The notes beneath the pieces were generated by a model that worked only from the letters and a program-made list of their open reading frames with translations, was not told the DNA's origin and searched no databases. 64,000 nucleotides of DNA from positions 37,696,001 through 37,760,000 of the forward strand of contig OX597827.1 in the NCBI GenBank assembly GCA_951406725.2, read 5' to 3'. The stretch comes from Octopus vulgaris. Taxonomy: Eukaryota. Of this stretch, positions 15,975 through 62,667 are shown in pieces (position 1 is the stretch's first letter; each line of letters starts with the position of its first letter). Position numbers and translations under genes: made by a program.

Positions 15975-16600
15975 CAAAATGCTTAGCGGTATTTTGTCTA
16001 CCGCTACGTTCTGAGTTCAAATTCCGCCGAGGTCGGCTTTGCCTTTCATCCTTTCGGGGTCGATAAATTAAGTACCATAACGCACTGGGGTCGATGTAAT
16101 CGACTTAATACCTATGTCTGTCCTTGTTTGTCCACTCTATGTTTAGCCCCTTGTGGCTAATAAAGAAATAGGTATTTCGTCTGCCGCTACGTTTTGAGTT
16201 CAAATTCCGCCGAGGTCCACTTTGCCTTTCATCCTTTCGGGGTCGATAAATTAAGTACCAGTTACGCACTGGGGTCGATCTAATCGACTTAATCCGTTTG
16301 TCTGTCCTTGTTTGTCCTCTCTGTGTTTAGCCCCTTGTGGGTAGTAAAGAAATAAGTATTTCGTCTGTCTTGACATTCGGATTTCAAATTCTGCCGAGGT
16401 CGGCTTTGCTTTCATCCTTTTAGTGTCTATAAATAAGTACCCTCGAAATTGCTGGCCGTGTGTCAAAATTTGAAGCCGTTATTATTTATTATTGGTACTA
16501 ATGGTGGTGGGCTGGCAGAAAAGTTACCACGCCGTACAAAATGCTTAGCTGCATTTCTTCCCACTTAATGTTCTGTATTCAAATGCTGCCAAGGTTGACT
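15975..16600 (+). mobile_element. Tandem SINE units (~184 bp); two carry the GCCCCTTGTGG-N-TA(A/G)TAAAGAAATA tail
   Basis: Units end at 16170 and 16354; further degenerate units follow. Confidence 0.85.
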
Positions 16601-28454: not shown

Positions 28455-31175
<2,721 letters not shown>

Positions 31176-31729
31176 GAGTGAGAGAGCAGTTCATGCCATC
31201 AAAGTGACACTGGGGTAAAATATACGAAGCCCAATATACCCATCATGACTACCCGTCTGATAAGGGCACACCAGGCACATGCATCACAACCATATGTGTG
31301 CGACATGGTGATCTCATATCAAGATAAACAGCACATGACCTTGCAGGTGGGGCCCAGTTAGAATTTTCTTCAGGTTGAGTAGCCCATCCCGCTCAAACGG
31401 TCCCTGAATAAGGGTTGTTTAAGGATGTTGAAATAACCACCCATGTTTCCAGAGGTGAATTATTCAAACCCCAAAGAATCCCTCTCAACACATGGCTATG
31501 ATGCTCCCCCACTACTTCTGCTTGTGATCAGAGATGCACATATCGTCAGCCACTAAGGGACATGCTCAACTGGTTAAGGTCAAACAACTGACAAACAAAT
31601 CTGTGGTATTGAGCAGAATATTTGCTGTAGCCCATCTTTTATACCAAGACAAAACAATGTACATGATAACACTTCCAAACAGTTAAGATCAGAAGCCATG
31701 AGAGCCATTGCCTGGTACTGCATCAGGGC

Positions 31730-37522: not shown

Positions 37523-37595
<73 letters not shown>

Positions 37596-37607
<12 letters not shown>

Positions 37608-38180
37608 AAACTGAGAATGTGTGTATGTCTGTCTTCTGTCTGTCTGTCTGTGTGTTTCCCTAAAACTTGAGAACTACACAACCAATTTCATTCAAATTTT
37701 ACACATGTCTTACTTAGGGTCCGGGGAGTGTCATCGGCAAAAAAAATGTTCAACTTTTTGCCTAGGGTGAGCCCACAGCAATATCATATCTTCTCCTCTA
37801 CGATTCCCTAAAACTTGAGAACTACACAACCAATTCCATTCAAATTTTATACATGCTTTACTTAGGGTCCATGTAGTTTCATGGGCAAAAAAATGTTCAA
37901 CTTCTTGTCTAGAGCGAGCGTATAGCAATATCATATCTTCTCCACTATTTCAGTATTACGTGTTAAAAGTGAAACAAAAACGTTTCTCTATTTTATGTCA
38001 GATACTCTCACTTTAACAATAAAAATAATAATAACAATTGAATTATATGTAGTAAGTAATAATTAGAATCAAACTAAAGTATAATATAATCGTAACATAA
38101 CAAAAGTAAAAATAGCAATTGGTATAAAATTGCATCAATGACTTGAACTTGAATAAGTGGTTTCACATGAATGGGAATAA
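37596..38180 (+). mobile_element. 5' part of a non-autonomous Helitron-like element with ~150 bp internal tandem repeat
   Basis: tatatataaaa..(GTCT)n..aactacacaaccaatttcattcaaattt start resembles non-autonomous Helitrons; ccctaaaacttgagaactacacaacc repeated at 37658 and 37806. Confidence 0.55.
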
Positions 38181-38242
38181 ATTGAAAATAAAATTAGCGT
38201 GCAGAAATGGAATAGTCCAGATGGATAATAAAAAATTAAATT

Positions 38243-38291
38243 AAAGAAAAGACTATTGTCTATAAAGTATACAATGTAGAGGAAAAAGGTG
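38243..38291 (+). pseudogene. ORF1 relic, family C, left part (split by the array)
   Basis: KEKTIVYKVYNVEEK matches B KRTIVYRVFANERK and A KRTITYRTWCVESK. Confidence 0.75.
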
Positions 38292-40086
38292 GCGTTTTTT
38301 TCGGCTCCCGTGTTTTTTTGAGTTAGTTAGTTGAGTTATTCTGGTGTGTTTATTCTGGTGTGTTTATTTCGAGTAAAGAGGTTGTGAGTTCGAGTTCGTT
38401 GGAGGACGTGGAAAAATTTTTTCTTGAAAATGCAAGAGCAGACTTACGCGCGAGCGGCAGGCAGAGGCCTGGTTGCCGGTGAACTGGAAATGGAGGAGGT
38501 GATGGTCGAACAGAAGACTTTACAGAAGTATTTCGACAGTTTAAAGAGGGAGGGTGACTGTGTGATAGTCACACCGTCCGAGGAGGAGGAAAGCAGTGCA
38601 GAGAAGCGTACTATAACGTACAGGACGTGGTGCGTGGAGTCGAAGAAGATTGAAGTAGCGGAAATGGAAGAAGTGGAAAGGTGTCTGAAGGAAATTGAGG
38701 GTGAACCAGCATTTTTTAAAAGAGGAAGGAAGTATGCCACGGTAGTGGTGTATTTTAAAACAGAAGAGGAGGCAAAAAAGAACGCTACAAGAATTTTGAA
38801 ATCGGATAAGTGGACTTTGCTACCAAGTTACTGCGGAAGGAGAGCAGTGAGGATGAGAATCAATAGAATCTCACCCGAATTTAATATGGAAAGGTTGCTG
38901 GCAGCAGTGCTGTTTAACTGCAAGGATGATGTGGAGGTACTGAAGGTGGAGAAGTCAGCAGAGGTGAAGTGGTGGGGATATACGGTGCAGGTTCTGGCAC
39001 ACATAACCGTGCGAGACCTGTACAACATCCCGGAGGAGTTGGTCTACCCTGACGAAACACGGCTCCGAGTTGTGGTAGAGGGAAGACCCCCAATTTGCTA
39101 TAACTGTAAATCGAGGGGCCACATGAAGGATGTGTGCCCGCGAGAAAAAACAAAAGCACCAGAGGTTGTGATAGAGGAGTGTAAAGAAGCGTGTGTGGAG
39201 GAAGCGAAAGCGGAGGAAACACAAATGGAGGAGCAGTTAAATGAGGAAGAACGAGCAAGTGCAGAAGAGGAAAAAACAGAAGACAAGAAGAGATCAAGGG
39301 TGGAATCACCACCGAAAGATATAAAAAAGAAAAAAATCAAAAGCAAGATAGCAGAAGAGAGAGAAGAGAAAAAAGAACAGGAAGTAAAAGAAAAGGTGAG
39401 AGAGCGACCAAGGACAGAGTTTGAACAAGAATGGGAGACAAGAGTGAACGAACAATTGGAATCGTGTAAATATGGAAGAAGGCCTACAGGAAAAAACTTG
39501 AAGGCAGTTGTGATGTATATCAAGAATACAGAAGTGGAAAAGAGACTTGTAGGTAAGAAAGGGTTGGTCAGGGTGAAGGTGAACCCAAAACTGTATGGTG
39601 AAGATGTAAAAGGCGTCATTATAGACAAGGAGACATACACAAAATTAAAAAAGATATATCATGCTATGCATATAATGCATTATGTACGGTATGATAAATT
39701 ACCAGATGTAATAGATCAAACGGACCTATTGGATTATATGACGGACGAGTGTCTAATGTAAAAGAATTAGAATTGTTACTTGTAAAATTATTTGATGTAA
39801 AGTTGTGTTTTTGAACAGGAATATATGTAATGTTAACATGTAAAATTGTAAAATTATTGTACTGTGAACTGGAATATATGTAACTGTAAAATTGTATTTT
39901 GAACTGGAATATATGAAATGTATAATTGTATTTTAAACGGAACTGCGAGTTGGGGGTTCGTAAGCCGTTCCATCTCATTACATATAAATTCATCTTTTAC
40001 TTCATATTTTATTTTTACTTTATGTACCCCATGTCCCGTCTTGTAATGTCCCCCTCTTCGTGGCCCCTTGTGGGTAATAAAAAAAT
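38292..40086 (+). mobile_element. ORF1-only (HAL1-like) non-autonomous retroelement, family A
   Basis: 5' GCGTTTTTTTCGGCTCCCGTGTTTTTTT, single ORF, 3' GCCCCTTGTGGGTAATAAAAAAAT; termini shared with family B. Confidence 0.85.
38430..39761 (+). CDS. Tx1/L1-type ORF1 (gag-like nucleic-acid-binding protein, CCHC knuckle), 443 aa from ATG
   Basis: Intact ORF; N-terminal TYA motif, putative RRM-like region, VVVEGRPPICYNCKSRGHMKDVC (CX2CX4HX4C), E/K-rich linker. Confidence 0.8.
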   Translation: MQEQTYARAAGRGLVAGELEMEEVMVEQKTLQKYFDSLKREGDCVIVTPSEEEESSAEKRTITYRTWCVESKKIEVAEMEEVERCLKEIEGEPAFFKRGRKYATVVVYFKTEEEAKKNATRILKSDKWTLLPSYCGRRAVRMRINRISPEFNMERLLAAVLFNCKDDVEVLKVEKSAEVKWWGYTVQVLAHITVRDLYNIPEELVYPDETRLRVVVEGRPPICYNCKSRGHMKDVCPREKTKAPEVVIEECKEACVEEAKAEETQMEEQLNEEERASAEEEKTEDKKRSRVESPPKDIKKKKIKSKIAEEREEKKEQEVKEKVRERPRTEFEQEWETRVNEQLESCKYGRRPTGKNLKAVVMYIKNTEVEKRLVGKKGLVRVKVNPKLYGEDVKGVIIDKETYTKLKKIYHAMHIMHYVRYDKLPDVIDQTDLLDYMTDECLM

Positions 40087-40261
40087 CGCGTTTTTTTCGG
40101 CTCGTGTTTTTTCGGCTTAAAATTCGGTAAAAAAGAACAAAAAGCGTTGTTGTTGTTGTGGAAATTCTGAACGGCGTTGACGCGGTTTCGCGTTTCGCTC
40201 GTTCAGCGCGTTACACTTTTTCTGTTTTGGCGGCCGTTTTCGGTCTGTCAGACAGAAGGAA

Positions 40262-41676
40262 ATGGACTATGAGTCTCTAACAGACTTGTCCACGACAGAT
40301 GAGGAACTGGAACAGGCAATTGCAATGAAGCTGATGGAAGAAAAGGCTGGAGTTTTCGAGTCTTTATCAGACTTGTCTACGTCTGAGGAGGAGCTAGAAA
40401 TGGCAGTGAGGAAAATGGATCAGAAGCTGGGTTATACCTATGCCGGTGTAACCAAGAAGGCGGAAGAGAAAGGGGTCGACATGGCCAAGTTGCCAAGTTA
40501 CCAGAAATACATGAAAAAGGAAAGCGGTGAGGTGGAACTATCACCGACACCCAGGAGAAAAGAATGGTATGATAAGAGGACCATTGTTTACAGGGTGTTC
40601 GCAAACGAAAGGAAGAGGGTAGAAGTTGTAACCATGGAATGGATAGAGGAAGCCCTGCGAAGAACTGAGGAGGAAATAAATTTTCTGACTCGAGGATCCA
40701 AGTACGGGACCGTAGTTGTGCACTTTAAAAGTGAATCTGCAGCGAGGAAGATGGCAGCGAAGGCGGTGAAGTCGGAAAAGGTAACACTGTTACCTACGTA
40801 TTTAAACAGGAGGATTACACGAATAAGGGTGGAGGGAGTGCCACCAAACGTGGAGGCAGAATGGATTGTGGCGGCTGTGATCAGCGGCCACGAGGACGAA
40901 GTGGATATTCTCCATGCCTCGGTTAAGTCCGAGGGCTGGAGAGGCGTAACAGTGGAGCTGAACGTACAGGCAGAGACCGAGGTACTGGTGGACCTGACGG
41001 AAAGCATCAGACTGGGAGAAGTGATCATGAGAGTGTGGGTGGAGGGCAGGGCTCCACGTTGTTACAAGTGTGGCCTGAGGGGTCACATAAGAGCCTTCTG
41101 CCCTCCCCCAGGGAAAGAAATGGATCCCGAACCAGAGAGAGAGAAGCAGAAACCAGAGGAGAAGGAAACAGAGGAAGAGAATACACAGAAATGGAAGGAA
41201 GCTGGAAGTAAGAGGAAGAGAAGAATCGTGGAAAAGAAAATAATATGGAACTCCAATCTACCCCAAAACCACCCACACCCTCTGAGTCCCACCCTATCCA
41301 TGCAGACATTGAACCCACCCGCTCCCCCCCAACAAGAAAACAAAAGAAAAAAAAGAATACACACACACAAGAGATTGAAATCGAACCCAGGCCGTACATT
41401 TGTACTATGACTGAACAGAAAGAAGTTAAAAGTCTAATGGAAGAGTATAAATGGTTTGATGTTGGAGAGACTAGGTATGCTGTGATTGAAAAGAAGAACA
41501 TAGGTGAGTTTATGGTGAGGTGTGAAAGGGAGAATTGGGAGGTGAAAGATATAAGAATGAGCGATGAATTCGTGGAAAATATGGATGAGTATTTCGGAGT
41601 AAGAATGGATATGGAATTTATTCGTATTGGCAAAGAACATTCAAGTGACTATGAAAAACAAAGGACAGGTAAGTGA
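40262..41676 (+). CDS. Family B ORF1, copy B1 (one frameshift)
   Basis: ORFs 40262-41410 and 41245-41676; VWVEGRAPRCYKCGLRGHIRAFC. Confidence 0.75.
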
Positions 41677-42360
41677 TGCTGACGGACGGGGCCGTTGGTA
41701 TCGCTTTCATTTTATCATTTTTTTCGTTTAACAATTCATGTTCATAAAGTTTAATTATAATGTTCAATGTCCCCATGTCTTTTGTTGTCCCCCTCTGTGT
41801 CGCCCCTTAGTGGGTAATAAAAAATCAGCTGTGATTGAAAAAAAGAACATAGGTGAGTTTATGGGGAGGTGTGAAAGGGAGAATTGGGAGGTGAAAGATA
41901 TAAGAATGAGCGATGAATTCGTGGAAAATATGGATGAGTATTTCGGAGTAAGAATGGATATGGAATTTATTCGTATTGGCAAAGAACATTCAAGTGACTA
42001 TGAAAAACAAAGGACAGGTAAGTGATGCTGACGGACGGGGCCGTTGGTATCGCTTTCATTTTATCATTTCTTCGTTTAACACTTCATGTTCTTATAGTTT
42101 AATTATAATGTTCTATGTCCCCATGTTTTGTTATGTCCACCACTCTTCGTAGCCCCTTAGTGGGTAATAAAGAAATACATGTTTTTTTCGGCTCCGTGTT
42201 TTTTTTTTCGGCTCCTGAAAATTCGGTAAAAAGGAACAAAAAGGGTTGTTGTTGTTGTGGAAATTCTGAACGGCGTTGACGCGGTTTCGCGTTTCGCTCG
42301 TTCGGCGCGTTACACTTTTTCTGTTTTGGCGGCCGTTCTCGGTCTGTCAGACAGAAGGAA

Positions 42361-43776
42361 ATGGACTATGAGTCTCTAACAGACTTGTCCACGACGGATG
42401 AGGAGCTGGAACAGGCAATTGCAATGAAGCTGATGGAAGAAAAGGCTGGAGTTTTCGAGTCTTTATCAGACTTGCCTACGTCTGAGAAGGAGCTAGAAAC
42501 GGCAGCAAGGGAATTGGAAGAGAAGCTGGGTTATACCTATGCCGGTGTAACCAAGAAGGCGGAAGAGAAAGGGGTCGACATGGCCAAGTTGCCAAGTTAC
42601 CAGAAATACATGAAAAAGGAAAGCGGTGAGGTGGAACTATCACCGACACCCAGGAGAAAAGAATGGTATGATAAGAGGACCATTGTTTACAGGGTGTGCG
42701 CAAACGAAAGGAAGAGGGTAGAAGTTGTATCCATGGAATGGATAGAGGAAGCCCTGCGAAGAACTGAGGAGGAAATAAATTTTCTGACTCGAGGATCCAA
42801 GTACGGGACCGTAGTTGTGCACTTTAAAAGTGAATCTGTAGCGAGGAAGATGGCAGCGAAGGCGGTGAAGTCGGAAAAGGTAACACTGTTACCTACGTAT
42901 TTAAACAGGAGGATTACACGAATAAGGGTGGAGGGAGTGCCACCAAACGTGGAGGCAGAATGGATTGTGGCGGCTGTGATCAGCGGCCACGAGGACGAAG
43001 TGGATATTCTCCATGCCTCGGTTAAGTCCGAGGGCTGGAGAGGCGTAACAGTGGAGCTGAACGTACAGGCAGAGACCGAGGTACTGGTGGACCTGACGGA
43101 AAGCATCAGACTGGGAGAAGTGATCATGAGAGTGTGGGTGGAGGGCAGGGCTCCACGTTGTTACAAGTGTGGCCTGAGGGGTCACATAAGAGCCTTCTGC
43201 CCTCCCCCAGGGAAAGAAATGGATCCCGAACCAGAGAGAGAGAAGCAGAAACCAGAGGAGAAGGAAACAGAGGAAGAGAATACACAGAAATGGAAGGAAG
43301 CTGGAAGTAAGAGGAAGAGAAGAATATGTGGAAAAAAAGAAAATAATATGGAACTCCAATCTACCCCAAAACCTCCCACACCCTCTGAGTCCCACCCTAT
43401 CCATGCAGACATTGAACCCACCCGCTCCCCCCAACAAGAAAACAAAAGAAAAAAAAGAATACACACACACAAGAGATTGAAATCGAACCCAGGCCGTACA
43501 TTTGTACTATGACTGAACAGAGGGAAGTTAAAAGTCTAATGGAAGAGTATAAACGGTATGATGTTGGAGAGACTAGGTATGCTGTGATTGAAAAAAGAAC
43601 ATAGGTGAGTTTATGGGGAGGTGTGAAAGGGAGAATTGGGAGGTGAAAGATATAAGAATGAGCGATGAATTCGTGGAAAATATGAATGAGTATTTCGGAG
43701 TAAGAATGGATATGGAATTTATTCGTATTGGCAAAGAACATTCAAGTGACTATGAAAAACAAAGGACAGGTAAGTG
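42361..43776 (+). CDS. Family B ORF1, copy B2 (homopolymer frameshifts)
   Basis: ORF 42361-43512 plus a disrupted C-terminal segment. Confidence 0.7.
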
Positions 43777-44111
43777 ATGCTGACGGACGGGGCCGTTGGT
43801 ATCGCTTTCATTTTATCATTTTTTTTCGTTTAACAATTCATGTTCATAAAGTTTAATTATAATGTTCTATGTCCCCATGTCTTTTGTTGTCCCCCTCTGT
43901 GTCGCCCCTTAGTGGGTAATAAAAAATCACATGTTTTTTTCGGCTCCGTGTTTTTTTTCGGCTCCTGAAAATTCGGTAAAAAAGAACAAAAAAGGTTGTT
44001 GTTGTTGTGGAAATTCTGAACGGCGTTGACGCGGTTTCGCGTTTCGCTCGTTCAGCGCGTTACACTTTTTCTGTTTTGGTGGCCGTTTTCGGTCTGTCAG
44101 ACAGAAAGGAA

Positions 44112-45530
44112 ATGGACTATGAGTCTCTAACAGACTTGTCCACGACAGATGAGGAACTGGAACAGGCAATTGCAATGAAGCTGATGGAAGAAAAGGCTGG
44201 AGTTTTCGAGTCTTTATCAGACCTGCCTACGTCTGAGAAGGAGCTAGAAATGGCAGCAAGGAATTTGGAAGAGAAGCTGGGTTATACCTATGCCGGTGTA
44301 ACCAAGAAGGCGGAAGAGAAAGGGGTCGACATGGCCAAGTTGCCAAGTTACCAGAAATACATGAAAAAGGAAAGCGGTGAGGTGGAACTATCACCGACAC
44401 CCAGGAGAAAAGAATGGTATGATAAGAGGACGATTATTTACAGGGTGTTCGCAAACGAAAGGAAGAGGGTAGAAGTTGTAACCATGGAATGGATAGAGGA
44501 AGCCCTGCGAAGAACTGAGGAGGAAATAAATTTTCTGACTCGAGGATCCAAGTACGGTACCGTAGTTGTGCATTTCAAAACTGAGTCTGCAGCGAGGAAG
44601 ATGGCGGCGAAGGCGGTGAAGTCAGAAAAGGTAAGCCTATTACCTACGTATTTAAACAGGAGGATTACACGAATAAGGGTGGAGGGAGTGCCACCAAACG
44701 TGGAGGCAGAATGGATTGTGGCGGCTGTGATCAGCGGCCACGAGGACGAAGTGGATATTCTCCATGCCTCGGTTAAGTCCGAGGGCTGGAGAGGCGTAAC
44801 AGTGGAGCTGAACGTACAGGCAGAGACCGAGGTACTGGTGGACCTGACGGAAAGCATCAGACTGGGAGACGTGATCATGAGAGTGTGGGTGGAGGGCAGG
44901 GCTCCACGTTGTTACAAGTGTGGCCTGAGGGGTCACATAAGAGCCTTCTGCCCTCCCCCAGGGAAAGAAATGGATTCCGAACCAGAGAGAGAGAAGCAGA
45001 AACCAGAGGAGAAGGAAACAGAGGAAGAGAATACACAGAAATGGAAGGAAGCTGGAAGTAAGAGGAAGAGAAGAATTCGTGGTAAAGAAAATAATATGGA
45101 ACTCCAATCTACCCCAAAACCACCCACACCCTCTGAGTCCCACCCTATCCATGCAGACATTGAACCCACCCGCTCCCCCCCCAACAAGAAAACAAAAGAA
45201 AAAAAAGAATACACACACACACAAGAGATTGAAATCGAACCCAGGCCGTACATTTGTACTATGACTGAACAGAGGGAAGTTAAAAGTCTAATGGAAGAGT
45301 ATAAACGGTATGATGTTGGAGAGACTAGGTATGCTGTGATTGAAAAAAAGAACATAGGTGAGTTTATGGGGAGGTGTGAAAGGGAGAATTGGGAGGTGAA
45401 AGATATAAGAATGAGCGATGAATTCGTGGAAAATATGAATGAGTATTTCGGAGTAAGAATGGATATGGAATTTATTCGTATTGGCAAAGAACATTCAAGT
45501 GACTATGAAAAACAAAGGACAGGTAAGTGA
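44112..45530 (+). CDS. Family B ORF1, copy B3, uninterrupted (472 aa from ATG)
   Basis: Open from MDYESL to KQRTGK*; CCHC knuckle; homologous to the family A ORF. Confidence 0.85.
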   Translation: MDYESLTDLSTTDEELEQAIAMKLMEEKAGVFESLSDLPTSEKELEMAARNLEEKLGYTYAGVTKKAEEKGVDMAKLPSYQKYMKKESGEVELSPTPRRKEWYDKRTIIYRVFANERKRVEVVTMEWIEEALRRTEEEINFLTRGSKYGTVVVHFKTESAARKMAAKAVKSEKVSLLPTYLNRRITRIRVEGVPPNVEAEWIVAAVISGHEDEVDILHASVKSEGWRGVTVELNVQAETEVLVDLTESIRLGDVIMRVWVEGRAPRCYKCGLRGHIRAFCPPPGKEMDSEPEREKQKPEEKETEEENTQKWKEAGSKRKRRIRGKENNMELQSTPKPPTPSESHPIHADIEPTRSPPNKKTKEKKEYTHTQEIEIEPRPYICTMTEQREVKSLMEEYKRYDVGETRYAVIEKKNIGEFMGRCERENWEVKDIRMSDEFVENMNEYFGVRMDMEFIRIGKEHSSDYEKQRTGK

Positions 45531-46154
45531 TGCTGACGGACGGGGCCGTTGGTATCGCTTTCATTTTATCATTTTTTTCGTTTAACACTTCATGTTCATA
45601 TAGTTTAATTATAATGTTCTATGTCCCCATGTTTTGTTATGTCCGCCGTTCTTCGTAGCCCCTTAGTGGGTAATAAAGAAATAGAAATAGAAAGATATAA
45701 GAATGAGCGATGAATTCGTGGAAAATATGAATGAGTATTTCGGAGTAAGAATGGATATGGAATTTATTCGTATTGGCAAAGAACATTCAAGTGACTATGA
45801 AAAACAAAGGACAGGTAAGTGATGCTGACGGACGGGGCCGTTGGTATCGCTTTCATTTTATCATTTTTTCGTTTAACAATTCATGTTCATAAAGTTTAAT
45901 TATAATGTTCTATGTCCCCATGTCTTTTGTTGTCCCCCTCTGTGTCGCCCCTTAGTGGGTAATAAAAAATCACATGTTTTTTTCGGCTCGTGTTTTTTTT
46001 TTCGGCTCCTGAAAATTCGGTAAAAAAGAACAAAAAAGGTTGTTGTTGTTGTGGAAATTCTGAACGGCGTTGACGCGGTTTCGCGTTTCGCTCGTTCAGC
46101 GCGTTACACTTTTTCTGTTTTGGTGGCCGTTTTCGGTCTGTCAGACAGAGGGAA

Positions 46155-47570
46155 ATGGATTATGAGTCTCTAACAGACTTGTCCACGACAGATGAGGAAC
46201 TGGAACAGGCAATTGCAATGAAGCTGATGGAAGAAAAGGCTGGAGTTTTCGAGTCTTTATCAGACTTGCCTACGTCTGAGAAGGGGCTAGAAATGGCAGC
46301 AAGGAAATTGGAAGACAAGCTGAGTTATACCTATGCCGGTGTAACCAAGAAGGCGGAAGAGAAAGGGGTCGACATGGCCAAGTTGCCAAGTTACCAGAAA
46401 TACATGGAAAAGGAAAGCGGTGAGGTGGAACTATCACCGACACCCAGGAGAAAAGAATGGTATGATAAGAGGACCATTGTTTACAGGGTGTGCGCAAACG
46501 AAAGGAAGAGGGTAGAAGTTGTATCCATGGAATGGATAGAGGAAGCCCTGCGAAGAACTGAGGAGGAAATAAATTTTCTGACTCGAGGATCCAAGTACGG
46601 GACCGTAGTTGTGCACTTTAAAAGTGAATCTGCAGCGAGGAAGATGGCAGCGAAGGCGGTGAAGTCGGAAAAGGTAACACTGTTACCTACGTATTTAAAC
46701 AGGAGGATTACACGAATAAGGGTGGAGGGAGTGCCACCAAACGTGGAGGCAGAATGGATTGTGGCGGCTGTGATCAGCGGCCACGAGGACGAAGTGGATA
46801 TTCTCCATGCCTCGGTTAAGTCCGAGGGCTGGAGAGGCGTAACAGTGGAGCTGAACGTACAGGCAGAGACCGAGGTACTGGTGGACCTGACGGAAAGCAT
46901 CAGACTGGGAGAAGTGATCATGAGAGTGTGGGTGGAGGGCAGGGCTCCACGTTGTTACAAGTGTGGCCTGAGGGGTCACATAAGAGCCTTCTGCCCTCCC
47001 CCAGGGAAAGAAATGGATCCCGAACCAGAGAGAGAAAGCAGAAACCAGAGGAGAAGGAAACAGAGGAAGAGAATACACAGAAATGGAAGGAAGCTGGAAG
47101 TAAGAGGAAGAGAAGAATATGTGGAAAAAAGAAAATAATATGGAACTCCAATCTATCCCAAAACCTCCCACACCCTCTGAGTCCCACCCTATCCATGCAG
47201 ACATTGAACCCACCCGCTCCCCCCCAACAAGAAAACAAAAGAAAAAAAGAATACACACACACAAGAGATTGAAATCGAACCCAGGCCGTACATTTGTACT
47301 ATGACTGAACAGAGGGAAGTTAAAAGTCTAATGGAAGAGTATAAATGGTATGATGTTGGAGAGACTAGGTATGCTGTGATTGAAAAGAAGAACATAGGTG
47401 AGTTTATGGGGAGGTGTGAAAGGGAGAATTGGGAGGTGAAAGATATAAGAATGAGCGATGAATTCGTGGAAAATATGAATGAGTATTTCGGAGTAAGAAT
47501 GGATATGGAATTTATTCGTATTGGCAAAGAACATTCAAGTGACTATGAAAAACAAAGGACAGGTAAGTGA
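46155..47570 (+). CDS. Family B ORF1, copy B4 (frameshifts)
   Basis: ORFs 46155-47138, 47119-47304 and 47301-47570. Confidence 0.7.
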
Positions 47571-47901
47571 TGCTGACGGACGGGGCCGTTGGTATCGCTT
47601 TCATTTTATCATTTTTTTCGTTTAACAATTCATGTTCATAAAGTTTAATTATAATGTTCTATGTCCCCATGTCTTTTGTTGTCCCCCTCTGTGTCGCCCC
47701 TTAGTGGGTAATAAAAAATCACATGTTTTTTTCGGCTCGTGTTTTTTTTTCGGCTCCTGAAAATTCGGTAAAAAAGAACAAAAAGGTTGTTGTTGTTGTG
47801 GAAATTCTGAACGGCGTTGACGCGGTTTCGCGTTTCGCTCGTTCAGCGCGTTACACTTTTTCTGTTTTGGCGGCCGTTTTCGGTCTGTCAGACAGAAGGA
47901 A

Positions 47902-49317
47902 ATGGACTATGAGTCTCTAACAGACTTGTCCACGACGGATGAGGAACTGGAACAGGCAATTGCAGTGAAGCTGATGGAGAAAAGGCTGGAGTTTTCGAGT
48001 CTTTATCAGACTTGCCTACGTCTGAGAAGGAGCTAGAAATGGCAGCAAGGAAATTGGAAGACAAGCTGGGTTATACCTATGCCGGTGTAACCAAGAAGGC
48101 GGAAGAGAAAGGGGTCGACATGGCCAAGTTGCCAAGTTACCAGAAATACATGAAAAAGGAAAGCGGTGAGGTGGAACTATCACCGACACCCAGGAGAAAA
48201 GAATGGTATGATAAGAGGACCATTGTTTACAGGGTGTTCGCAAACGAAAGGAAGAGGGTAGAAGTTGTATCCATGGAATGGATAGAGGAAGCCCTGCGAA
48301 GAACTGAGGAGGAAATAAATTTTCTGACTCGAGGATCCAAGTACGGGACCGTAGTTGTGCACTTTAAAAGTGAATCTGCAGCGAGGAAGATGGCAGCGAA
48401 GGCGGTGAAGTCGGAAAAGGTAACACTGTTACCTACGTATTTAAACAGGAGGATTACACGAATAAGGGTGGAGGGAGTGCCACCAAACGTGGAGGCAGAA
48501 TGGATTGTGGCGGCTGTGATCAGCGGCCACGAGGACGAAGTGGATATTCTCCATGCCTCGGTTAAGTCCGAGGGCTGGAGAGGCGTAACAGTGGAGCTGA
48601 ACGTACAGGCAGAGACCGAGGTACTGGTGGACCTGACGGAAAGCATCAGACTGGGAGAAGTGATCATGAGAGTGTGGGTGGAGGGCAGGGCTCCACGTTG
48701 TTACAAGTGTGGCCTGAGGGGTCACATAAGAGCCTTCTGCCCTCCCCAGGGAAAGAAATGGATCCCGAACCAGAGAGAGAGAAGCAGAAACCAGAGGAGA
48801 AGGAAACAGAGGAAGAGAATACACAGAAATGGAAGGAAGCTGGAAGTAAGAGGAAGAGAAGAATATGTGGAAAAAAAGAAAATAATATGGAACTCCAATC
48901 TACCCCAAAACCTCCCACACCCTCTGAGTCCCACCCTATCCATGCAGACATTGAACCCACCCGCTCCCCCCAACAAGAAAACAAAAGAAAAAAAAGAATA
49001 CACACACACAAGAGATTGAAATCGAACCCAGGCCGTACATTTGTACTATGACTGAACAGAGGGAAGTTAAAAGTCTAATGGAAGAGTATAAATGGTATGA
49101 TGTTGGAGAGACTAGGTATGCTGTGATTGAAAAGAAGAACATAGGTGAGTTTATGGGGAGGTGTGAAAGGGAGAATTGGGAGGTGAAAGATATAAGAATG
49201 AGCGATGAATTCGTGGAAAATATGAATGAGTATTTCGGAGTAAGAATGGATATGGAATTTATTCGTATTGGCAAAGAACATTCAAGTGACTATGAAAAAC
49301 AAAGGACAGGTAAGTGA
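47902..49317 (+). CDS. Family B ORF1, copy B5 (frameshifts)
   Basis: ORFs 48012-49019, 48674-49051 and 49048-49317. Confidence 0.7.
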
Positions 49318-49646
49318 TGCTGACGGACGGGGCCGTTGGTATCGCTTTCATTTTATCATTTTTTTCGTTTAACAATTCATGTTCATAAATTTAATTATAA
49401 TGTTCTATGTCCCCATGTCTTTTGTTGTCCCCCTCTGTGTCGCCCCTTAGTGGGTAATAAAAAATCACATGTTTTTTCGGCTCGTGTTTTTTTTCGGCTC
49501 CTGAAAATTCGGTAAAAAAGAACAAAAAGCGTTGTTGTTGTTGTGGAAATTCTGAACGGCGTTGACGCGGTTTCGCGTTTCGCTCGTTCAGCGCGTTACA
49601 CTTTTTCTGTTTTGGCGGCCGTTTTCGGTCTGTCAGACAGAAGGAA

Positions 49647-51063
49647 ATGGACTATGAGTCTCTAACAGACTTGTCCACGACAGATGAGGAACTGGAACAG
49701 GCAATTGCAATGAAGCTGATGGAAGAAAAGGCTGGAGTTTTCGAGTCTTTATCAGACTTGCCTACGTCTGAGAAGGAGCTAGAAATGGCAGCAAGGAAAT
49801 TGGAAGACAAGCTGAGTTATACCTATGCCGGTGTAACCAAGAAGGCGGAAGAGAAAGGGGTCGACATGGCCAAGTTGCCAAGTTACCAGAAATACATGGA
49901 AAAGGAAAGCGGTGAGGTGGAACTATCACCGACACCCAGGAGAAAAGAATGGTATGATAAGAGGACCATTGTTTACAGGGTGTTCGCAAACGAAAGGAAG
50001 AGGGTAGAAGTTGTAACCATGGAATGGATAGAGGAAGCCCTGCGAAGAACTGAGGAGGAAATAAATTTTCTGACTCGAGGATCCAAGTACGGGACCGTAG
50101 TTGTGCACTTTAAAAGTGAATCTGCAGCGAGGAAGATGGCAGCGAAGGCGGTGAAGTCGGAAAAGGTAACACTGTTACCTACGTATTTAAACAGGAGGAT
50201 TACACGAATAAGGGTGGAGGGAGTGCCACCAAACGTGGAGGCAGAATGGATTGTGGCGGCTGTGATCAGCGGCCACGAGGACGAAGTGGATATTCTCCAT
50301 GCCTCGGTTAAGTCCGAGGGCTGGAGAGGCGTAACAGTGGAGCTGAACGTACAGGCAGAGACCGAGGTACTGGTGGACCTGACGGAAAGCATCAGACTGG
50401 GAGAAGTGATCATGAGAGTGTGGGTGGAGGGCAGGGCTCCACGTTGTTACAAGTGTGGCCTGAGGGGTCACATAAGAGCCTTCTGCCCTCCCCCAGGGAA
50501 AGAAATGGATCCCGAACCAGAGAGAGAGAAGCAGAAACCAGAGGAGAAGGAAACAGAGGAAGAGAATACACAGAAATGGAAGGAAGCTGGAAGTAAGAGG
50601 AAGAGAAGAATATGTGGAAAAAAAGAAAATAATATGGAACTCCAATCTACCCCAAAACCTCCCACACCCTCTGAGTCCCACCCTATCCATGCAGACATTG
50701 AACCCACCCGCTCCCCCCAACAAGAAAACAAAAGAAAAAAAGAATACACACACACAAGAGATTGAAATCGAACCCAGGCCGTACATTTGTACTATGACTG
50801 AACAGAGGGAAGTTAAAAGTCTAATGGAAGAGTATAAACGGTATGATGTTGGAGAGACTAGGTATGCTGTGATTGAAAAGAAGAACATAGGTGAGTTTAT
50901 GGGGAGGTGTGAAAGGGAGAATTGGGAGGTGAAAGATATAAGAATGAGCGATGAATTCGTGGAAAATATGAATGAGTATTTCGGAGTAAGAATGGATATG
51001 GAATTTATTCGTATTGGCAAAGAACATTCAAGTGACTATGAAAAACAAAGGACAGGTAAGTGA
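49647..51063 (+). CDS. Family B ORF1, copy B6 (frameshift)
   Basis: ORFs 49647-50765 and 50614-51063. Confidence 0.7.
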
Positions 51064-51400
51064 TGCTGACGGACGGGGCCGTTGGTATCGCTTTCATTTT
51101 ATCATTTTTTCGTTTAACAATTCATGTTCATAAAGTTTAATTATAATGTTCTATGTCCCCATGTTTTGTTATGTCCGCCATTCTTCGTAGCCCCTTAGTG
51201 GGTAATAAAGAAATCACAGCGTTTTTTTCGGCTCCGTGTTTTTTTTTTCGGCTCCTGAAAATTCGGTAAAAAAGAACAAAAAAGGTTGTTGTTGTTGTGG
51301 AAATTCTGAACGGCGTTGACGCGGTTTCGCGTTTCGCTCGTTCAGCGCGTTACACTTTTTCTGTTTTGGCGGCCGTTTTCGGTCTGTCAGACAGAAGGAA

Positions 51401-52818
51401 ATGGACTATGAGTCTCTAACAGACTTGTCCACGACAGATGAGGAACTGGAACAGGCAATTGCAATGAAGCTGATGGAAGAAAAGGCTGGAGTTTTCGAGT
51501 CTTTATCAGACTTGCCTATGTCTGAGAAGGAGCTAGAAATGGCAGCAAGGAAATTGGAAGACAAGCTGAGTTATACCTATGCCGGTGTAACCAAGAAGGC
51601 GGAAGAGAAAGGGGTCGACATGGCCAAGTTGCCAAGTTACCAGAAATACATGAAAAAGGAAAGCGGTGAGGTGGAACTATCACCGACACCCAGGAGAAAA
51701 GAATGGTATGATAAGAGGACCATTGTTTACAGGGTGTGCGCAAACGAAAGGAAGAGGGTAGAAGTTGTAACCATGGAATGGATAGAGGAAGCCCTGCGAA
51801 GAACTGAGGAGGAAATAAATTTTCTGACTCGAGGATCCAAGTACGGGACCGTAGTTGTGCACTTTAAAAGTGAATCTGCAGCGAGGAAGATGGCAGCGAA
51901 GGCGGTGAAGTCGGAAAAGGTAACACTGTTACCTACGTATTTAAACAGGAGGATTACACGAATAAGGGTGGAGGGAGTGCCACCAAACGTGGAGGCAGAA
52001 TGGATTGTGGCGGCTGTGATCAGCGGCCACGAGGACGAAGTGGATATTCTCCATGCCTCGGTTAAGTCCGAGGGCTGGAGAGGCGTAACAGTGGAGCTGA
52101 ACGTACAGGCAGAGACCGAGGTACTGGTGGACCTGACGGAAAGCATCAGACTGGGAGAAGTGATCATGAGAGTGTGGGTGGAGGGCAGGGCTCCACGTTG
52201 TTACAAGTGTGGCCTGAGGGGTCACATAAGAGCCTTCTGCCCTCCCCCAGGGAAAGAAATGGATCCCGAACCAGAGAGAGAGAAGCAGAAACCAGAGGAG
52301 AAGGAAACAGAGGAAGAGAATACACAGAAATGGAAGGAAGCTGGAAGTAAGAGGAAGAGAAGAATATGTGGAAAAAAAGAAAATAATATGGAACTCCAAT
52401 CTACCCCAAAACCTCCCACACCCTCTGAGTCCCACCCTATCCATGCAGACATTGAACCCACCCGCTCCCCCCAACAAGAAAACAAAAAAAAAAAAAGAAT
52501 ACACACACACAAGAGATTGAAATCGAACCCAGGCCGTACATTTGTACTATGACTGAACAGAGGGAAGTTAAAAGTCTAATGGAAGAGTATAAACGGTATG
52601 ATGTTGGAGAGACTAGGTATGCTGTGATTGAAAAAAAGAACATAGGTGAGTTTATGGGGAGGTGTGAAAGGGAGAATTGGGAGGTGAAAGATATAAGAAT
52701 GAGCGATGAATTCGTGGAAAATATGAATGAGTATTTCGGAGTAAGAATGGATATGGAATTTATTCGTATTGGCAAAGAACATTCAAGTGACTATGAAAAA
52801 CAAAGGACAGGTAAGTGA
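51401..52818 (+). CDS. Family B ORF1, copy B7 (frameshift)
   Basis: ORFs 51401-52552 and 52549-52818. Confidence 0.7.
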
Positions 52819-53148
52819 TGCTGACGGACGGGGCCGTTGGTATCGCTTTCATTTTATCATTTTTTCGTTTAACAATTCATGTTCATAAAGTTTAATTATA
52901 ATGTTCTATGTCCCCATGTCTTTTGTATGTCCCCTCTGTGTCGCCCCTTAGTGGGTAATAAAAAATCACATGTTTTTTTCGGCTCCGTGTTTTTTTTTCG
53001 GCTCCTGAAAATTCGGTAAAAAAGAACAAAAAGGTTGTTGTTGTTGTGGAAATTCTGAACGGCGTTGACGCGGTTTCGCGTTTCGCTCGTTCAGCGCGTT
53101 ACACTTTTTCTGTTTTGGCGGCCGTTTTCGGTCTGTCAGACAGAGGAA

Positions 53149-54567
53149 ATGGACTATGAGTCTCTAACAGACTTGTCCACGACAGATGAGGAACTGGAAC
53201 AGGCAATTGCAATGAAGCTGATGGAAGAAAAGGCTGGAGTTTTCGAGTCTTTATCAGACTTGCCTACGTCTGAGAAGGAGCTAGAAATGGCAGCAAGGGA
53301 AATTGGAAGACAAGCTGAGTTATACCTATGCCGGTGTAACCAAGAAGGCGGAAGAGAAAGGGGTCGACATGGCCAAGTTGCCAAGTTACCAGAAATACAT
53401 GAAAAAGGAAAGCGGTGAGGTGGAACTATCACCGACACCCAGGAGAAAAGAATGGTATGATAAGAGGACCATTGTTTACAGGGTGTTCGCAAACGAAAGG
53501 AAGAGGGTAGAAGTTGTAACCATGGAATGGATAGAGGAAGCCCTGCGAAGAACTGAGGAGGAAATAAATTTTCTGACTCGAGGATCCAAGTACGGGACCG
53601 TAGTTGTGCACTTTAAAAGTGAATCTGCAGCGAGGAAGATGGCAGCGAAGGCGGTGAAGTCGGAAAAGGTAACACTGTTACCTACGTATTTAAACAGGAG
53701 GATTACACGAATAAGGGTGGAGGGAGTGCCACCAAACGTGGAGGCAGAATGGATTGTGGCGGCTGTGATCAGCGGCCACGAGGACGAAGTGGATATTCTC
53801 CATGCCTCGGTTAAGTCCGAGGGCTGGAGAGGCGTAACAGTGGAGCTGAACGTACAGGCAGAGACCGAGGTACTGGTGGACCTGACGGAAAGCATCAGAC
53901 TGGGAGAAGTGATCATGAGTGTGTGGGTGGAGGGCAGGGCTCCACGTTGTTACAAGTGTGGCCTGAGGGGTCACATAAGAGCCTTCTGCCCTCCCCCAGG
54001 GAAAGAAATGGATCCCGAACCAGAGAGAGAGAAGCAGAAACCAGAGGAGAAGGAAACAGAGGAAGAGAATACACAGAAATGGAAGGAAGCTGGAAGTAAG
54101 AGGAAGAGAAGAATATGTGGAAAAAAAGAAAATAATATGGAACTCCAATCTATCCCAAAACCTCCCACACCCTCTGAGTCCCACCCTATCCATGCAGACA
54201 TTGAACCCACCCGCTCCCCCCCAACAAGAAAACAAAAGAAAAAAAGAATACACACACACAAGAGATTGAAATCGAACCCAGGCCGTACATTTGTACTATG
54301 ACTGAACAGAGGGAAGTTAAAAGTCTAATGGAAGAGTATAAACGGTATGATGTTGGAGAGACTAGGTATGCTGTGATTGAAAAGAAGAACATAGGTGAGT
54401 TTATGGGGAGGTGTGAAAGGGAGAATTGGGAGGTGAAAGATATAAGAATGAGCGATGAATTCGTGGAAAATATGAATGAGTATTTCGGAGTAAGAATGGA
54501 TATGGAATTTATTCGTATTGGCAAAGAACATTCAAGTGACTATGAAAAACAAAGGACAGGTAAGTGA
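53149..54567 (+). CDS. Family B ORF1, copy B8 (frameshifts)
   Basis: ORFs 53303-54301 and 54298-54567. Confidence 0.7.
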
Positions 54568-54899
54568 TGCTGACGGACGGGGCCGTTGGTATCGCTTTCA
54601 TTTTATCATTTTTTCGTTTAACAATTCATGTTCATAAAGTTTAATTATAATGTTCTATGTCCCCATGTCTTTTGTTATGTCCGCCCTCTTCGTAGCCCCT
54701 TAGTGGGTAATAAAAAATCACATGTTTTTTTCGGCTCGTGTTTTTTTTTTCGCTCTGAAAATTCGGTAAAAAAGAACAAAAAGGTTGTTGTTGTTGTGGA
54801 AATTCTGAACGGCGTTGACGCGGTTTCGCGTTTCGCTCGTTCAGCGCGTTACACTTTTTCTGTTTTGGCGGCCGTTTTCGGTCTGTCAGACAGAAGGAA

Positions 54900-56314
54900 A
54901 TGGACTATGAGTCTCTAACAGACTTGTCCACGACAGATGAGGAACTGGAACAGGCAATTGCAATGAAGCTGATGGAAGAAAAGGCTGGAGTTTTCGAGTC
55001 TTTATCAGACTTGCCTACGTCTGAGAAGGAGCTAGAAATGGCAGCAAGGAAATTGGAAGAAAGCTGAGTTATACCTATGCCGGTGTAACCAAGAAGGCGG
55101 AAGAGAAAGGGGTCGACATGGCCAAGTTGCCAAGTTACCAGAAATACATGAAAAAGGAAAGCGGTGAGGTGGAACTATCACCGACACCCAGGAGAAAAGA
55201 ATGGTATGATAAGAGGACCATTGTTTACAGGGTGTTCGCAAACGAAAGGAAGAGGGTAGAAGTTGTAACCATGGAATGGATAGAGGAAGCCCTGCGAAGA
55301 ACTGAGGAGGAAATAAATTTTCTGACTCGAGGATCCAAGTACGGGACCGTAGTTGTGCACTTTAAAAGTGAATCTGCAGCGAGGAAGATGGCAGCGAAGG
55401 CGGTGAAGTCGGAAAAGGTAACACTGTTACCTACGTATTTAAACAGGAGGATTACACGAATAAGGGTGGAGGGAGTGCCACCAAACGTGGAGGCAGAATG
55501 GATTGTGGCGGCTGTGATCAGCGGCCACGAGGACGAAGTGGATATTCTCCATGCCTCGGTTAAGTCCGAGGGCTGGAGAGGCGTAACAGTGGAGCTGAAC
55601 GTACAGGCAGAGACCGAGGTACTGGTGGACCTGACGGAAAGCATCAGACTGGGAGAAGTGATCATGAGAGTGTGGGTGGAGGGCAGGGCTCCACGTTGTT
55701 ACAAGTGTGGCCTGAGGGGTCACATAAGAGCCTTCTGCCCTCCCCCAGGGAAAGAAATGGATCCCGAACCAGAGAGAGAGAAGCAGAAACCAGAGGAGAA
55801 GGAAACAGAGGAAGAGAATACACAGAAATGGAAGGAAGCTGGAAGTAAGAGGAAGAGAAGAATATGTGGAAAAAAAGAAAATAATATGGAACTCCAATCT
55901 ATCCCAAAACCTCCCACACCCTCTGAGTCCCACCCTATCCATGCAGACATTGAACCCACCCGCTCCCCCCAACAAGAAAACAAAAAAAAAAAGAATACAC
56001 ACACACAAGAGATTGAAATCGAACCCAGGCCGTACATTTGTACTATGACTGAACAGAGGGAAGTTAAAAGTCTAATGGAAGAGTATAAATGGTATGATGT
56101 TGGAGAGACTAGGTATGCTGTGATTGAAAAGAAGAACATAGGTGAGTTTATGGGGAGGTGTGAAAGGGAGAATTGGGAGGTGAAAGATATAAGAATGAGC
56201 GATGAATTCGTGGAAAATATGAATGAGTATTTCGGAGTAAGAATGGATATGGAATTTATTCGTATTGGCAAAGAACATTCAAGTGACTATGAAAAACAAA
56301 GGACAGGTAAGTGA
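54900..56314 (+). CDS. Family B ORF1, copy B9 (early frameshift, remainder continuous)
   Basis: ORF 55118-56314. Confidence 0.7.
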
Positions 56315-56629
56315 TGCTGACGGACGGGGCCGTTGGTATCGCTTTCATTTTATCATTTTTTCGTTTAACAATTCATGTTCATAAAGTTTAATTATAATGT
56401 TCTATGTCCCCATGTTTTGTTGTGTCCCCTCTGTGTCGCCCCTTAGTGGGTAATAAAAAATCACTTGTTTTTTTTTTGCGCTCTGTAAAATTCGGTAAAA
56501 AAGAACAAAAAGCGTTGTTGTTGTTGTGGAAATTCTGAACGGCGTTGACGCGGTTTCGCGTTTCGCTCGTTCAGCGCGTTACACTTTTTCTGTTTTGGCG
56601 GCCGTTTTCGGTCTGTCAGACAGAAGGAA

Positions 56630-58047
56630 ATGGACTATGAGTCTTTAACAGACTTGTCCACGACAGATGAGGAACTGGAACAGGCAATTGCAATGAAGCT
56701 GATGGAAGAAAAGGCTGGAGTTTTCGAGTCTTTATCAGACTTGTCTACATCTGAGGAGGAGCTAGAAATAGCAGTGAGGAAAATGGATCAGAAGCTGGGT
56801 TATACCTATGCCGGTGTAACCAAGAAGGCGGAAGAGAAAGGGGTCGACATGGCCAAGTTGCCAAGTTACCAGAAATACATGAAAAAGGAAAGCGGTGAGG
56901 TGGAACTATCACCGACACCCAGGAGAAAAGAATGGTATGATAAGAGGACCATTGTTTACAGGGTGTTCGCAAACGAAAGGAAGAGGGTAGAAGTTGTAAC
57001 CATGGAATGGATAGAGGAAGCCCTGCGAAGAACTGAGGAGGAAATAAATTTTCTGACTCGAGGATCCAAGTACGGGACCGTAGTTGTGCACTTTAAAAGT
57101 GAATCTGCAGCGAGGAAGATGGCAGCGAAGGCGGTGAAGTCGGAAAAGGTAACACTGTTACCTACGTATTTAAACAGGAGGATTACACGAATAAGGGTGG
57201 AGGGAGTGCCACCAAACGTGGAGGCAGAATGGATTGTGGCGGCTGTGATCAGCGGCCACGAGGACGAAGTGGATATTCTCCATGCCTCGGTTAAGTCCGA
57301 GGGCTGGAGAGGCGTAACAGTGGAGCTGAACGTACAGGCAGAGACCGAGGTACTGGTGGACCTGACGGAAAGCATCAGACTGGGAGAAGTGATCATGAGA
57401 GTGTGGGTGGAGGGCAGGGCTCCACGTTGTTACAAGTGTGGCCTGAGGGGTCACATAAGAGCCTTCTGCCCTCCCCCAGGGAAAGAAATGGATCCCGAAC
57501 CAGAGAGAGAGAAGCAGAAACCAGAGGAGAAGGAAACAGAGGAAGAGAATACACAGAAATGGAAGGAAGCTGGAAGTAAGAGGAAGAGAAGAATATGTGG
57601 AAAAAAAGAAAATAATATGGAACTCCAATCTACCCCAAAACCTCCCACACCCTCTGAGTCCCACCCTATCCATGCAGACATTGAACCCACCCGCCCCCCC
57701 CAACAAGAAAACAAAAGAAAAAAAAGAATACACACACACAAGAGATTGAAATCGAACCCAGGCCGTACATTTGTACTATGACTGAACAGAGGGAAGTTAA
57801 AAGTCTAATGGAAGAGTATAAACGGTATGATGTTGGAGAGACTAGGTATGCTGTGATTGAAAAGAAGAACATAGGTGAGTTTATGGGGAGGTGTGAAAGG
57901 GAGAATTGGGAGGTGAAAGATATAAGAATGAGCGATGAATTCGTGGAAAATATGAATGAGTATTTCGGAGTAAGAATGGATATGGAATTTATTCGTATTG
58001 GCAAAGAACATTCAAGTGACTATGAAAAACAAAGGACAGGTAAGTGA
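56630..58047 (+). CDS. Family B ORF1, copy B10 (frameshift)
   Basis: ORFs 56630-57781 and 57778-58047. Confidence 0.7.
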
Positions 58048-58199
58048 TGCTGACGGACGGGGCCGTTGGTATCGCTTTCATTTTATCATTTTTTTCGTTT
58101 AACAATTCATGTTCATAAAGTTTAATTATAATGTTCTATGTCCCCATGTTTTGTTATGTCCGCCATTCTTCGTAGCCCCTTAGTGGGTAATAAAGAAAT

Positions 58200-58500
58200 C
58201 ACATGGAGGAAAGCACCTTCGAAAAGTGTCTTGGTACGACTATGAAAGGTATCTAATCAGAGGCGGTAAATTCGCCACAATAGAAGCAAGGTTCGAGTCA
58301 ACGGAGCGTGCAAGGGAGTACTCGACTCGAACTTTCAAAGTGGAAATATTTTATTTTTACCTTTATATCTGGGACGTAGGACGTCCCGGAAAAAAATAAA
58401 AAATACCCCCCCCCCCCCCGAAGTAGAGGTAGGCCGGATTGTAGCCACAATTCTATACAAGAGGGAGGACAAGATACAATTGATCGAAATTGCAAGAGAC
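58200..58500 (+). pseudogene. ORF1 relic, family C, right part
   Basis: HMEESTFEKCL / YLIRGGKFATIEARFESTERAREYSTRTF / ILFLPLYLGRRTSR / PEVEVGRIVATILYKREDKIQLIEI aligns collinearly with A and B (RGRKYATVVVYFKTEEEAKK, LLPSYCGRR, PNVEAEWIVAAVISGHEDEVDIL). Confidence 0.85.
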
Positions 58501-58636
58501 GGGCTTACGTATTGTTATCACTAGCGATATCAAGATATAACTTTGTATTTTGTATTTTATGTGTAGATGTATATATATAGATATACATGTAATATGTACA
58601 CATATATATACACATATATACATGCACTAGCACTAT

Positions 58637-58667
58637 GACCCGGCAACGACGGGTCTTTAATGCTAGT
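58637..58667 (+). mobile_element. Helitron 3' terminus (hairpin + CTAG)
   Basis: GACCCG-gcaacga-CGGGTC, then tttaatg CTAG|T. Confidence 0.7.
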
Positions 58668-59380: not shown

Positions 59381-59423
<43 letters not shown>

Positions 59424-59426
<3 letters not shown>

Positions 59427-59963
59427 CAAAGAAAACCAAACCTGGGAAGAAATCAAACCTGGAGAAGTAAAATTGAAAAAGAGATTGAATTTATGAGAGG
59501 GGAAATATCAATATTAAATGAACTAATATGTGGAAATGATGTAAGATCCAGAACAGGAAGAAAAATGAAGAGAAAATTTGGATCCTCACCAAGAGAAGAA
59601 CTGATATTAATAAAAGAAACGCTGAAACAAAAAGTCCAAGCAAAAGCCCAAAGAATACGAAGATTTGAGAAGAGAAACAAGTTTTACAAGCAAAATAAGC
59701 TGTTCACATCCAATGCCAAAAAATTCTACAGAGAAATAGGGAAGGAGAAAGTAACCGTTAAAGACCCCCCTCCCATGGAAGAAGTTCAAAACTTTTGGAA
59801 AAGGATTTGGAGTGACAAGAAGACGTATAACATAAATGCAGACTGGATTATACAAACAGAAGGATCCTACCAAAATTTACAACAACAAGCATGGGAAGAC
59901 ATCACAATAGCAGACCTAAGAAAGGCACTCACGAAGGCCCATAATCGGAAATCCCCCGGTAAA
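59424..59963 (+). mobile_element. R4/Dong internal fragment upstream of the RT domain, between (TAA)n tracts
   Basis: ORF 59493-59966; its last ~200 bp duplicate the start of the downstream copy. Confidence 0.85.
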
Positions 59964-59980
59964 TAATAATGATGATGATG

Positions 59981-60030
<50 letters not shown>

Positions 60031-60033
<3 letters not shown>

Positions 60034-62610: not shown

Positions 62611-62617
62611 TAATAAC

Positions 62618-62667
<50 letters not shown>

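Follow-up and report, generated by a model that had tools for sequence, protein, structure and literature searches.

The window analysed here is a stretch of 64,000 nucleotides (nt) of Octopus vulgaris DNA (C14:37696001-37760000, within a 2.8-Gb genome), and an array of long interspersed nuclear elements (LINEs) occupies its positions 38290-58199. The array consists of 13 head-to-tail units, one of a family named A and 12 of a family named B; ten of the B units are full-length and two are 5'-truncated (351 and 288 nt). Each full unit contains a single open reading frame (ORF) with a CCHC knuckle, the match of which to zf-CCHC is weak and under the Pfam cut-off, and no reverse transcriptase (RT). 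The longest open ORF1 is that of B unit 4, spanning 43980-45530 and encoding 472 amino acids from the methionine codon at 44112. The units are ORF1-only, non-autonomous LINEs of the HAL1-like kind. Two types of tail, A6-type (T1) and GAAAT (T2), are found at their 3' ends, and the A6-type closes 9 of the 13 units (Table 1).

Table 1. The LINE array and the two halves of its host element (positions in the window; T1, A6-type tail; T2, GAAAT tail)
Feature	Position	Strand	Remarks
Host, left half (~1.18-kb non-autonomous Helitron-like element)	37590..38289	+	10 nt of empty site absent at junction, likewise in most filled copies
Unit A, ORF1-only LINE family A	38290..40086	+	ORF 38388-39761, CCHC knuckle; A6-type tail; 0 private substitutions
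B unit 1	40087..41825	+	Head CGCG; T1 tail
B unit 2, 5'-truncated (begins at unit position 1401)	41826..42176	+	Starts GCT; T2 tail
B unit 3	42177..43927	+	Head CATG; T1 tail; nearest relative on contig C4
B unit 4	43928..45682	+	Head CATG; T2 tail
Duplicated tail word and B unit 5 (5'-truncated, begins at position 1466)	45683..45970	+	CATG absent; T1 tail
B units 6-11	45971..56461	+	Heads CATG (five) and CAGCG (one); related mosaic cluster
B unit 12	56462..58199	+	Head CTTG, then different head type GCGCTCTGT; T2 tail adjoining host
Host, right half, Helitron-like	58200..58667	+	Target CACATGGAGGAAAGC; 3' hairpin; CTAGT end; decayed ORF1 relic ~58200-58495

The left flank of the array is the left half of a repeat of about 1.18 kb, the right half of which follows the last unit. 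This host starts with TC, ends with a 3' hairpin and CTAG, and lies in an AT-rich insertion context; in 21 of 22 cases, the base after CTAG is T. From these end features, we take the host to be Helitron-like and non-autonomous. An earlier note on this DNA had described the right flank as unique; its first 22 nt have 331 exact matches in the genome, as part of this Helitron-like repeat. Thirty copies of the flank were sampled, and 26 were intact empty sites, two had a tail and two were otherwise rearranged. The sequence of the empty site is GTAGAGAAAAAAG(AA)GATTTGAA|CACATGG.

The host contains a decayed fragment of an L1/Tx1-type ORF1 (58200-58495 in the window; blastx E values down to 1.7e-8), found likewise in the empty copies L068, L070, L073, L085 and L089, and the target site sits in the upstream part of this relic.

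A second hot spot was seen about 310 nt downstream, near host position 993, at the other end of the relic, and is occupied by an autonomous subfamily (L104, L105, L106, L117 and L119). A second repeated target sequence was struck at several positions (C4:124.83M, C3:93.39M and C22:14.25M); it lies upstream of an end that resembles those of Mariner type.

A search for the tail joined to the target gave 156 matches, the first 100 of which represented 78 distinct junctions, all within 1-2 nt (hand count). Most filled copies have the same left junction with 10 nt absent, as expected if one filled Helitron had spread through the genome with its cargo and no site-specific retrotransposition had occurred. 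However, filled hosts are intermingled with empty ones (permutation p 0.32 for 41 right halves and 0.43 for 33 left halves) and array content varies from locus to locus, which refutes such hitchhiking. Moreover, the host copies deviate by 2-3% from their majority sequence, whereas the window units have 0-1 private substitutions each. The hitchhiking explanation was therefore rejected, and we assign it next to no probability. The filling of these sites is the result of repeated, site-specific retrotransposition into the Helitron-like host.

Other arrays at the same site contain a 5.25-kb autonomous element with an ORF1 and an ORF2 coding for an endonuclease-RT. The Pfam domains of this ORF2 are Exo_endo_phos, RVT_1 and zf-RVT, and its best match in the PDB is L1 ORF2p (E 8.6e-65, versus 4.9e-26 for R2). 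By its apurinic/apyrimidinic (APE) endonuclease, its RT nearest to L1 ORF2p and its C-terminal zinc motif, this partner belongs to the L1 group; it may be placed loosely in the L1/Tx1 group, as a candidate member of the Tx1 clade, and one homologue out of 25 bears the name 'Transposon TX1 149 kDa protein' (26% identity). The ORF1s of the array families are 33-36% identical to that of the partner (for B, 35% over 236 amino acids, E 2e-48), and the units and the partner have a similar 3' end, CCCC..GTGGGTAATAA, in which folding gave no significant conserved stem-loop (z -0.6 to -1.9). The passengers, which comprise at least six ORF1-coding families in stacks of up to 15 units, are likely mobilised by this partner. 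Its use of a multicopy target, a trait of the Tx1 clade, is a preference and not exclusive, many copies being dispersed.

The same 3' end was also found in a short repeat resembling a short interspersed nuclear element (SINE), at 15989-16441 of the window and at L152 and L154, with duplications of 16-19 nt; repeats of this type form 184-nt tandems as well.

The letters between each tail and the next unit had been read by the earlier note as variable-length duplications of the right flank. All 13 junction readings proved exact: C (40087), CA (41826), ACAT (42177), CACA (51215), CACT (56462), CACAT at six junctions (43928, 45971, 47720, 49466, 52967 and 54719), an extra AGAAATA at 45683 and CACATG at 58200. 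The unit boundary, on the other hand, had been misplaced. Among 50 loci with dispersed copies, nine LINE-type copies have exact duplications of 13-23 nt (the remaining loci gave no such repeat or did not show their left end), which, together with 5' truncation and a constant 3' end, are marks of retrotransposition. These duplications begin after ...AAATCA or ...AAACA, and the upstream flank is clearly without CA in L156, L094 and L116; CA is therefore the element's own end, which leaves true spacers of 0-4 nt in the window. A test for double insertion of the R1 type was negative, none of the 12 internal junctions having over 4 nt of flank beyond CA, and B unit 2 abuts the upstream CA without duplication. 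The C after unit A belongs to the junction AAAAAAT|CGCG, which follows A at other loci too. A doubled head (CGGCTC-CGTG) was considered as a fresh duplication around A and rejected, since A has it whatever follows.

The combination of tail, CACATG, T7 and CGG matched the genome five times, always in this array; by construction this pattern skips the variants at 42177 and 49466. Among 68 junctions elsewhere, the heads were CGCG (16), CGTG (9), CGTGG (8) and others, and all seven CATG heads belong to this array; the 35 head junctions in other arrays bordered by this flank include none. Such a run of CATG is no accident. The word represents a variant of the CGTG/CGCG head that is private to the array, and both truncated units (2 and 5) are without it. 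The alternative that CACAT is a fixed terminus of the family was rejected, as only CA is near-fixed. The first CATG may come from the flank or from a G-to-A change of CGTG, both being possible.

Spacers are array-specific in 54 of 113 pairs versus 11.8 expected (33 of 68 without the window). Distant bodies have the same spacer in 42 of 139 comparisons within an array versus 148 of 4442 between arrays, and near-identical bodies in different arrays also have the same spacers (25 of 121); the similarity of spacers is therefore local in part and lineage-borne in part. Some spacers elsewhere are pieces of the host left flank or of the upstream tail, the Helitron left-flank pieces in arrays measuring 16-100 nt, which suggests RNA leaders or insertion before a resident head.

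The comparison of internal spacers with each array's own right flank, which the earlier note had suggested as a check, gave a divided result. Spacers match at C2:158.83M (18 nt) and C4:124.83M (9 nt after CACA), match with mismatches at C1:118.74M, and do not match at C8:32.26M, C2:138.78M, C2:71.85M, C3:20.08M and C5:100.95M; in the last of these the internal spacer equals the left junction. True duplications of the flank between tandem copies exist at C2:158.83M and, for the Helitron target (15-16 nt), at L161, L162 and L187. Duplication of the flank is a mechanism that works at this site, although not visibly in this array.

The array at C2:158.83M (L124/L123) has five units in unique DNA, and the 18-nt duplication both flanks the array and separates all of its units. 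These 18 nt, together with the head, recur inside a Helitron array on C3.

If copies had been added next to CACATGG, every internal tail would once have been terminal. A6-type tails were found at 61 of 178 non-terminal junctions sampled and at 0 of 51 flank junctions (Fisher p 1.5e-8), and none of the at least 476 in the whole genome, a number that includes SINEs, abuts CATGG. GAAAT followed by AC occurs at 29 head junctions and no flank junction, whereas GAAAT followed by CA occurs at one head and eight flank junctions (p 1.8e-7). The tail that closes most units of the window array is thus never seen at the flank, which contradicts growth to the right.

The order of families is near-fixed: A, B/F, C, E and the autonomous element last. 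Over 53 loci, A or B precedes C in 40 pairs to 0 and A precedes B in 35 to 3; the autonomous element follows the other family in all 91 pairs, a count inflated by the choice of half of 40 order loci for their terminal tail of autonomous type. A random-order probability of 1e-12 for the last position of the autonomous element was discarded because of this choice. Family A takes first place in 8 of the 10 arrays holding it, where 2.4 would be expected, and none of its 16 copies stands last or alone (p 0.043).

The earlier note had proposed that copies insert at tail|CACATGG with a trimmed flank duplication, so that the array grew rightwards from A, its oldest unit. This account agrees with the identity of CA plus CATG with the flank over 6 nt, with the joining of CATG to at least three unrelated bodies and with the 15-16-nt duplications of L161, L162 and L187, which are compatible with insertion on the right side. 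The tail data are against it, and so are the absence of CATG from other arrays with the same flank and from the truncated units, and spacers far below the 13-23 nt of the family's duplications. Unit A is no more diverged than its neighbours, and its leftmost place is a habit of its family and not a sign of age. We regard this account as distinctly unlikely. What remains of the proposal that the enzyme targets the tail or the junction is repeated insertion at one site and the role of the junction as target; growth next to the flank does not.

Right-first polarity, and with it the tail and order data, would also result from template jumping. In this process, an RT primed at the target would reverse-transcribe one RNA as far as its 5' end and then switch to the 3' end of another, so that one or a few events would yield a concatemer. 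Truncated internal units that join the upstream tail without duplication, with 1-4 nt of possible microhomology (truncation positions 114, 1401, 1466, 1545 and 1728), the equal youth of all window units and the existence of RNA-borne leaders are consistent with such a course. However, template jumping leaves the array-private head word on unrelated bodies without explanation. In addition, the rightmost unit at C8:32.26M is decayed (it contains a stop and 7.2 private substitutions per kb, against 0-2.9 in its neighbours), and the rightmost unit at C4:93.34M is likewise decayed beside much younger neighbours. We consider template jumping an improbable origin of the array.

Equally improbable, in our estimate, is the expansion of a small founding stack mainly by unequal crossover and gene conversion, which would have multiplied one CACATG junction. 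In its favour, the C8:32.26M array contains a plain three-unit block duplication, and the units at C2:138.78M differ by 0-2 sites. In the window, units 6-11 form a cluster in which nearest units are 3-6 differences apart and one array-private variant is common to three, and the four-gamete test fails for 71 of the 190 pairs of sites. On the other side, units 3, 4 and 12 are nearer to copies on other contigs than to any in the array (2 versus 8, 9 versus 24 and 2 versus 12 differences, unit 12 having its nearest relatives on C2 and C8), which indicates that they arrived from outside. The copy relationships of this array therefore do not fit block duplication only, and the earlier statement that unequal crossover alone is insufficient holds for these three CATG- or CTTG-headed units. 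No exact block duplication was found in the window and no two units are identical; crossover yields neither the order of families nor the asymmetry of the tails.

At L136 (439-1379; C1:74.68M), a B unit with an inverted 3' part lies inside an array.

The explanation that we favour, with a confidence somewhat above even, is that 13 ORF1-only LINE copies accumulated at one Helitron-like site, mobilised by the autonomous partner, and that the array grew mostly by insertion before the resident units. The preference for the site, its independent filling, the partner, the ORF1-only passengers and the asymmetries of tails and order are observed. As for the first step, the data on the whole family show that copies ending in GAAAT or TAAAA insert at GAACA|CATGG of an empty host; B unit 12 is the likely founder, or near founder, of the window array. 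Later copies, all those with A6-type tails included, would prime at the 5' head of a resident, at a flank|head or tail|head junction, and land to its left. A staggered cut would duplicate about 13-23 nt of the resident head, and the homologous head of the incoming copy would anneal to the duplicate, so that only the first local letters would remain as a 'spacer'. One array-private head word (CATG) could in this way spread onto unrelated incoming bodies. Some spacers elsewhere may travel on RNA as 5' leaders, local unequal crossover probably multiplied units 6-11, and the truncated units may be due to template switches or to insertion into a resident.

Several observations weigh against growth by insertion before the residents. 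The nicking of the head is a putative step, and the heads (CGTGTTTTT) are unlike the Helitron target. With CA left on, 11 of the 68 head junctions read CAT..., which gives some room for letters derived from the flank, as do the true duplications at L161, L162, L187 and C2:158.83M; the spacers have their lineage-borne part. The mosaic haplotypes could partly be polishing artefacts. Besides the inflated count for the autonomous element, one autonomous-type tail is followed by a C head at L092, outside the 53-locus set. The age gradient is weak and confounded by family sampling: in 18 of 24 arrays, private substitutions are scarcer in the left-most unit than in the other units (p 0.023), and of 32 arrays, 18 have an older and 13 a younger rightmost unit (sign p 0.47, Wilcoxon p 0.011). 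Within the window array, no age gradient is seen.

The window includes other elements. Two RT-coding elements with RVT_1 matches lie in (TAA)n tracts, at 28617-31190 on the minus strand and at about 59420-62620 on the plus strand; they resemble Dong/R4. The region 16913-17752 is a degenerate, interstitial (TTAGGG)n tract, in which higher-order periodicities of 126 and 234 nt are present.

In the HeT-A arrays of Drosophila, the 3' end of a new copy joins the 5' end of the previous copy. The system described here resembles HeT-A/TART/TAHRE in combining a pol-less element, an autonomous helper and head-to-tail arrays, and HeT-A-type transcripts can begin in the upstream copy; unlike those arrays, which are telomeric, terminal and of random order, the present ones are interstitial, Helitron-seeded and ordered (PMC5537684). 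Among the closest settings are those of Tx1-Mar and SINEU-3 in the crocodilian Mariner-N4_AMi and of Tx1L in Tx1D of Xenopus: there too, a non-autonomous DNA transposon is the target of L1/Tx1-group LINEs and their non-autonomous passengers, which settle at two hot spots of fixed position; tandem insertions and host-derived 5' extensions occur, and hitchhiking was excluded (PMC4494074). However, the tandem copies in that system enclose a target duplication, and SINEs are the passengers (PMC4494074), whereas here the host is Helitron-like, at least six ORF1 families form stacks of up to 15 units, most junctions have no flank duplication, and the order of families is near-fixed.

HAL1 (half-L1) is likewise non-autonomous, encodes ORF1p only and has a 3' end similar to that of its autonomous partner (PMC5753468). 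HAL1 is mammalian, and the excerpted text makes no mention of site-specific stacks (PMC5753468); the ORF1 of the octopus elements differs by its CCHC knuckle and its distance from the partner's. The R1 arrays of Drosophila also arise by repeated insertion at one site followed by expansion through unequal exchange, and R1 double-insertion tandems correspond to the model of the earlier note, which the C2:158.83M array fits; the target duplication at R1 junctions is 33 nt (PMC5932611), versus 0-4 nt at the junctions of the window. Zepp of green algae is another LINE that accumulates on its own earlier copies, although nested and in one cluster per chromosome, as against the clean head-to-tail joins and many dispersed hosts seen here (PMC3446292). 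In the text consulted from a 2026 octopus repeat annotation, Tx1 is mentioned once and the words 'nested' and 'target' are absent (PMC13282606). Our search found no description of an ordered, multi-family LINE stack hosted by a Helitron; subscription journals, Repbase or supplements may describe the families.

Every single ingredient of this system is already known. The usual account of tandem LINEs is re-insertion behind an old copy with target duplication, followed by unequal exchange. The signature found here is a different one: right-first polarity, tail types not found against the original target, and families in a set order, in young arrays at many loci. A broader reading, which we hold tentatively and judge rather less probable than its contrary, is that of an interstitial HeT-A-like system, a parasitic hierarchy in which, among the at least six ORF1-only LINE families, only some would open the Helitron site and others would prime on resident heads, so that arrays would grow upstream with an order set by the identity of the junction and not by time; a Helitron that captured a piece of an ORF1 would have provided hundreds of nucleation sites. 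The arrays offer dozens of natural replicates for the origin of retrotransposon satellites, for the choice of site by non-autonomous LINEs and for the use of an element's own head as target away from telomeres.

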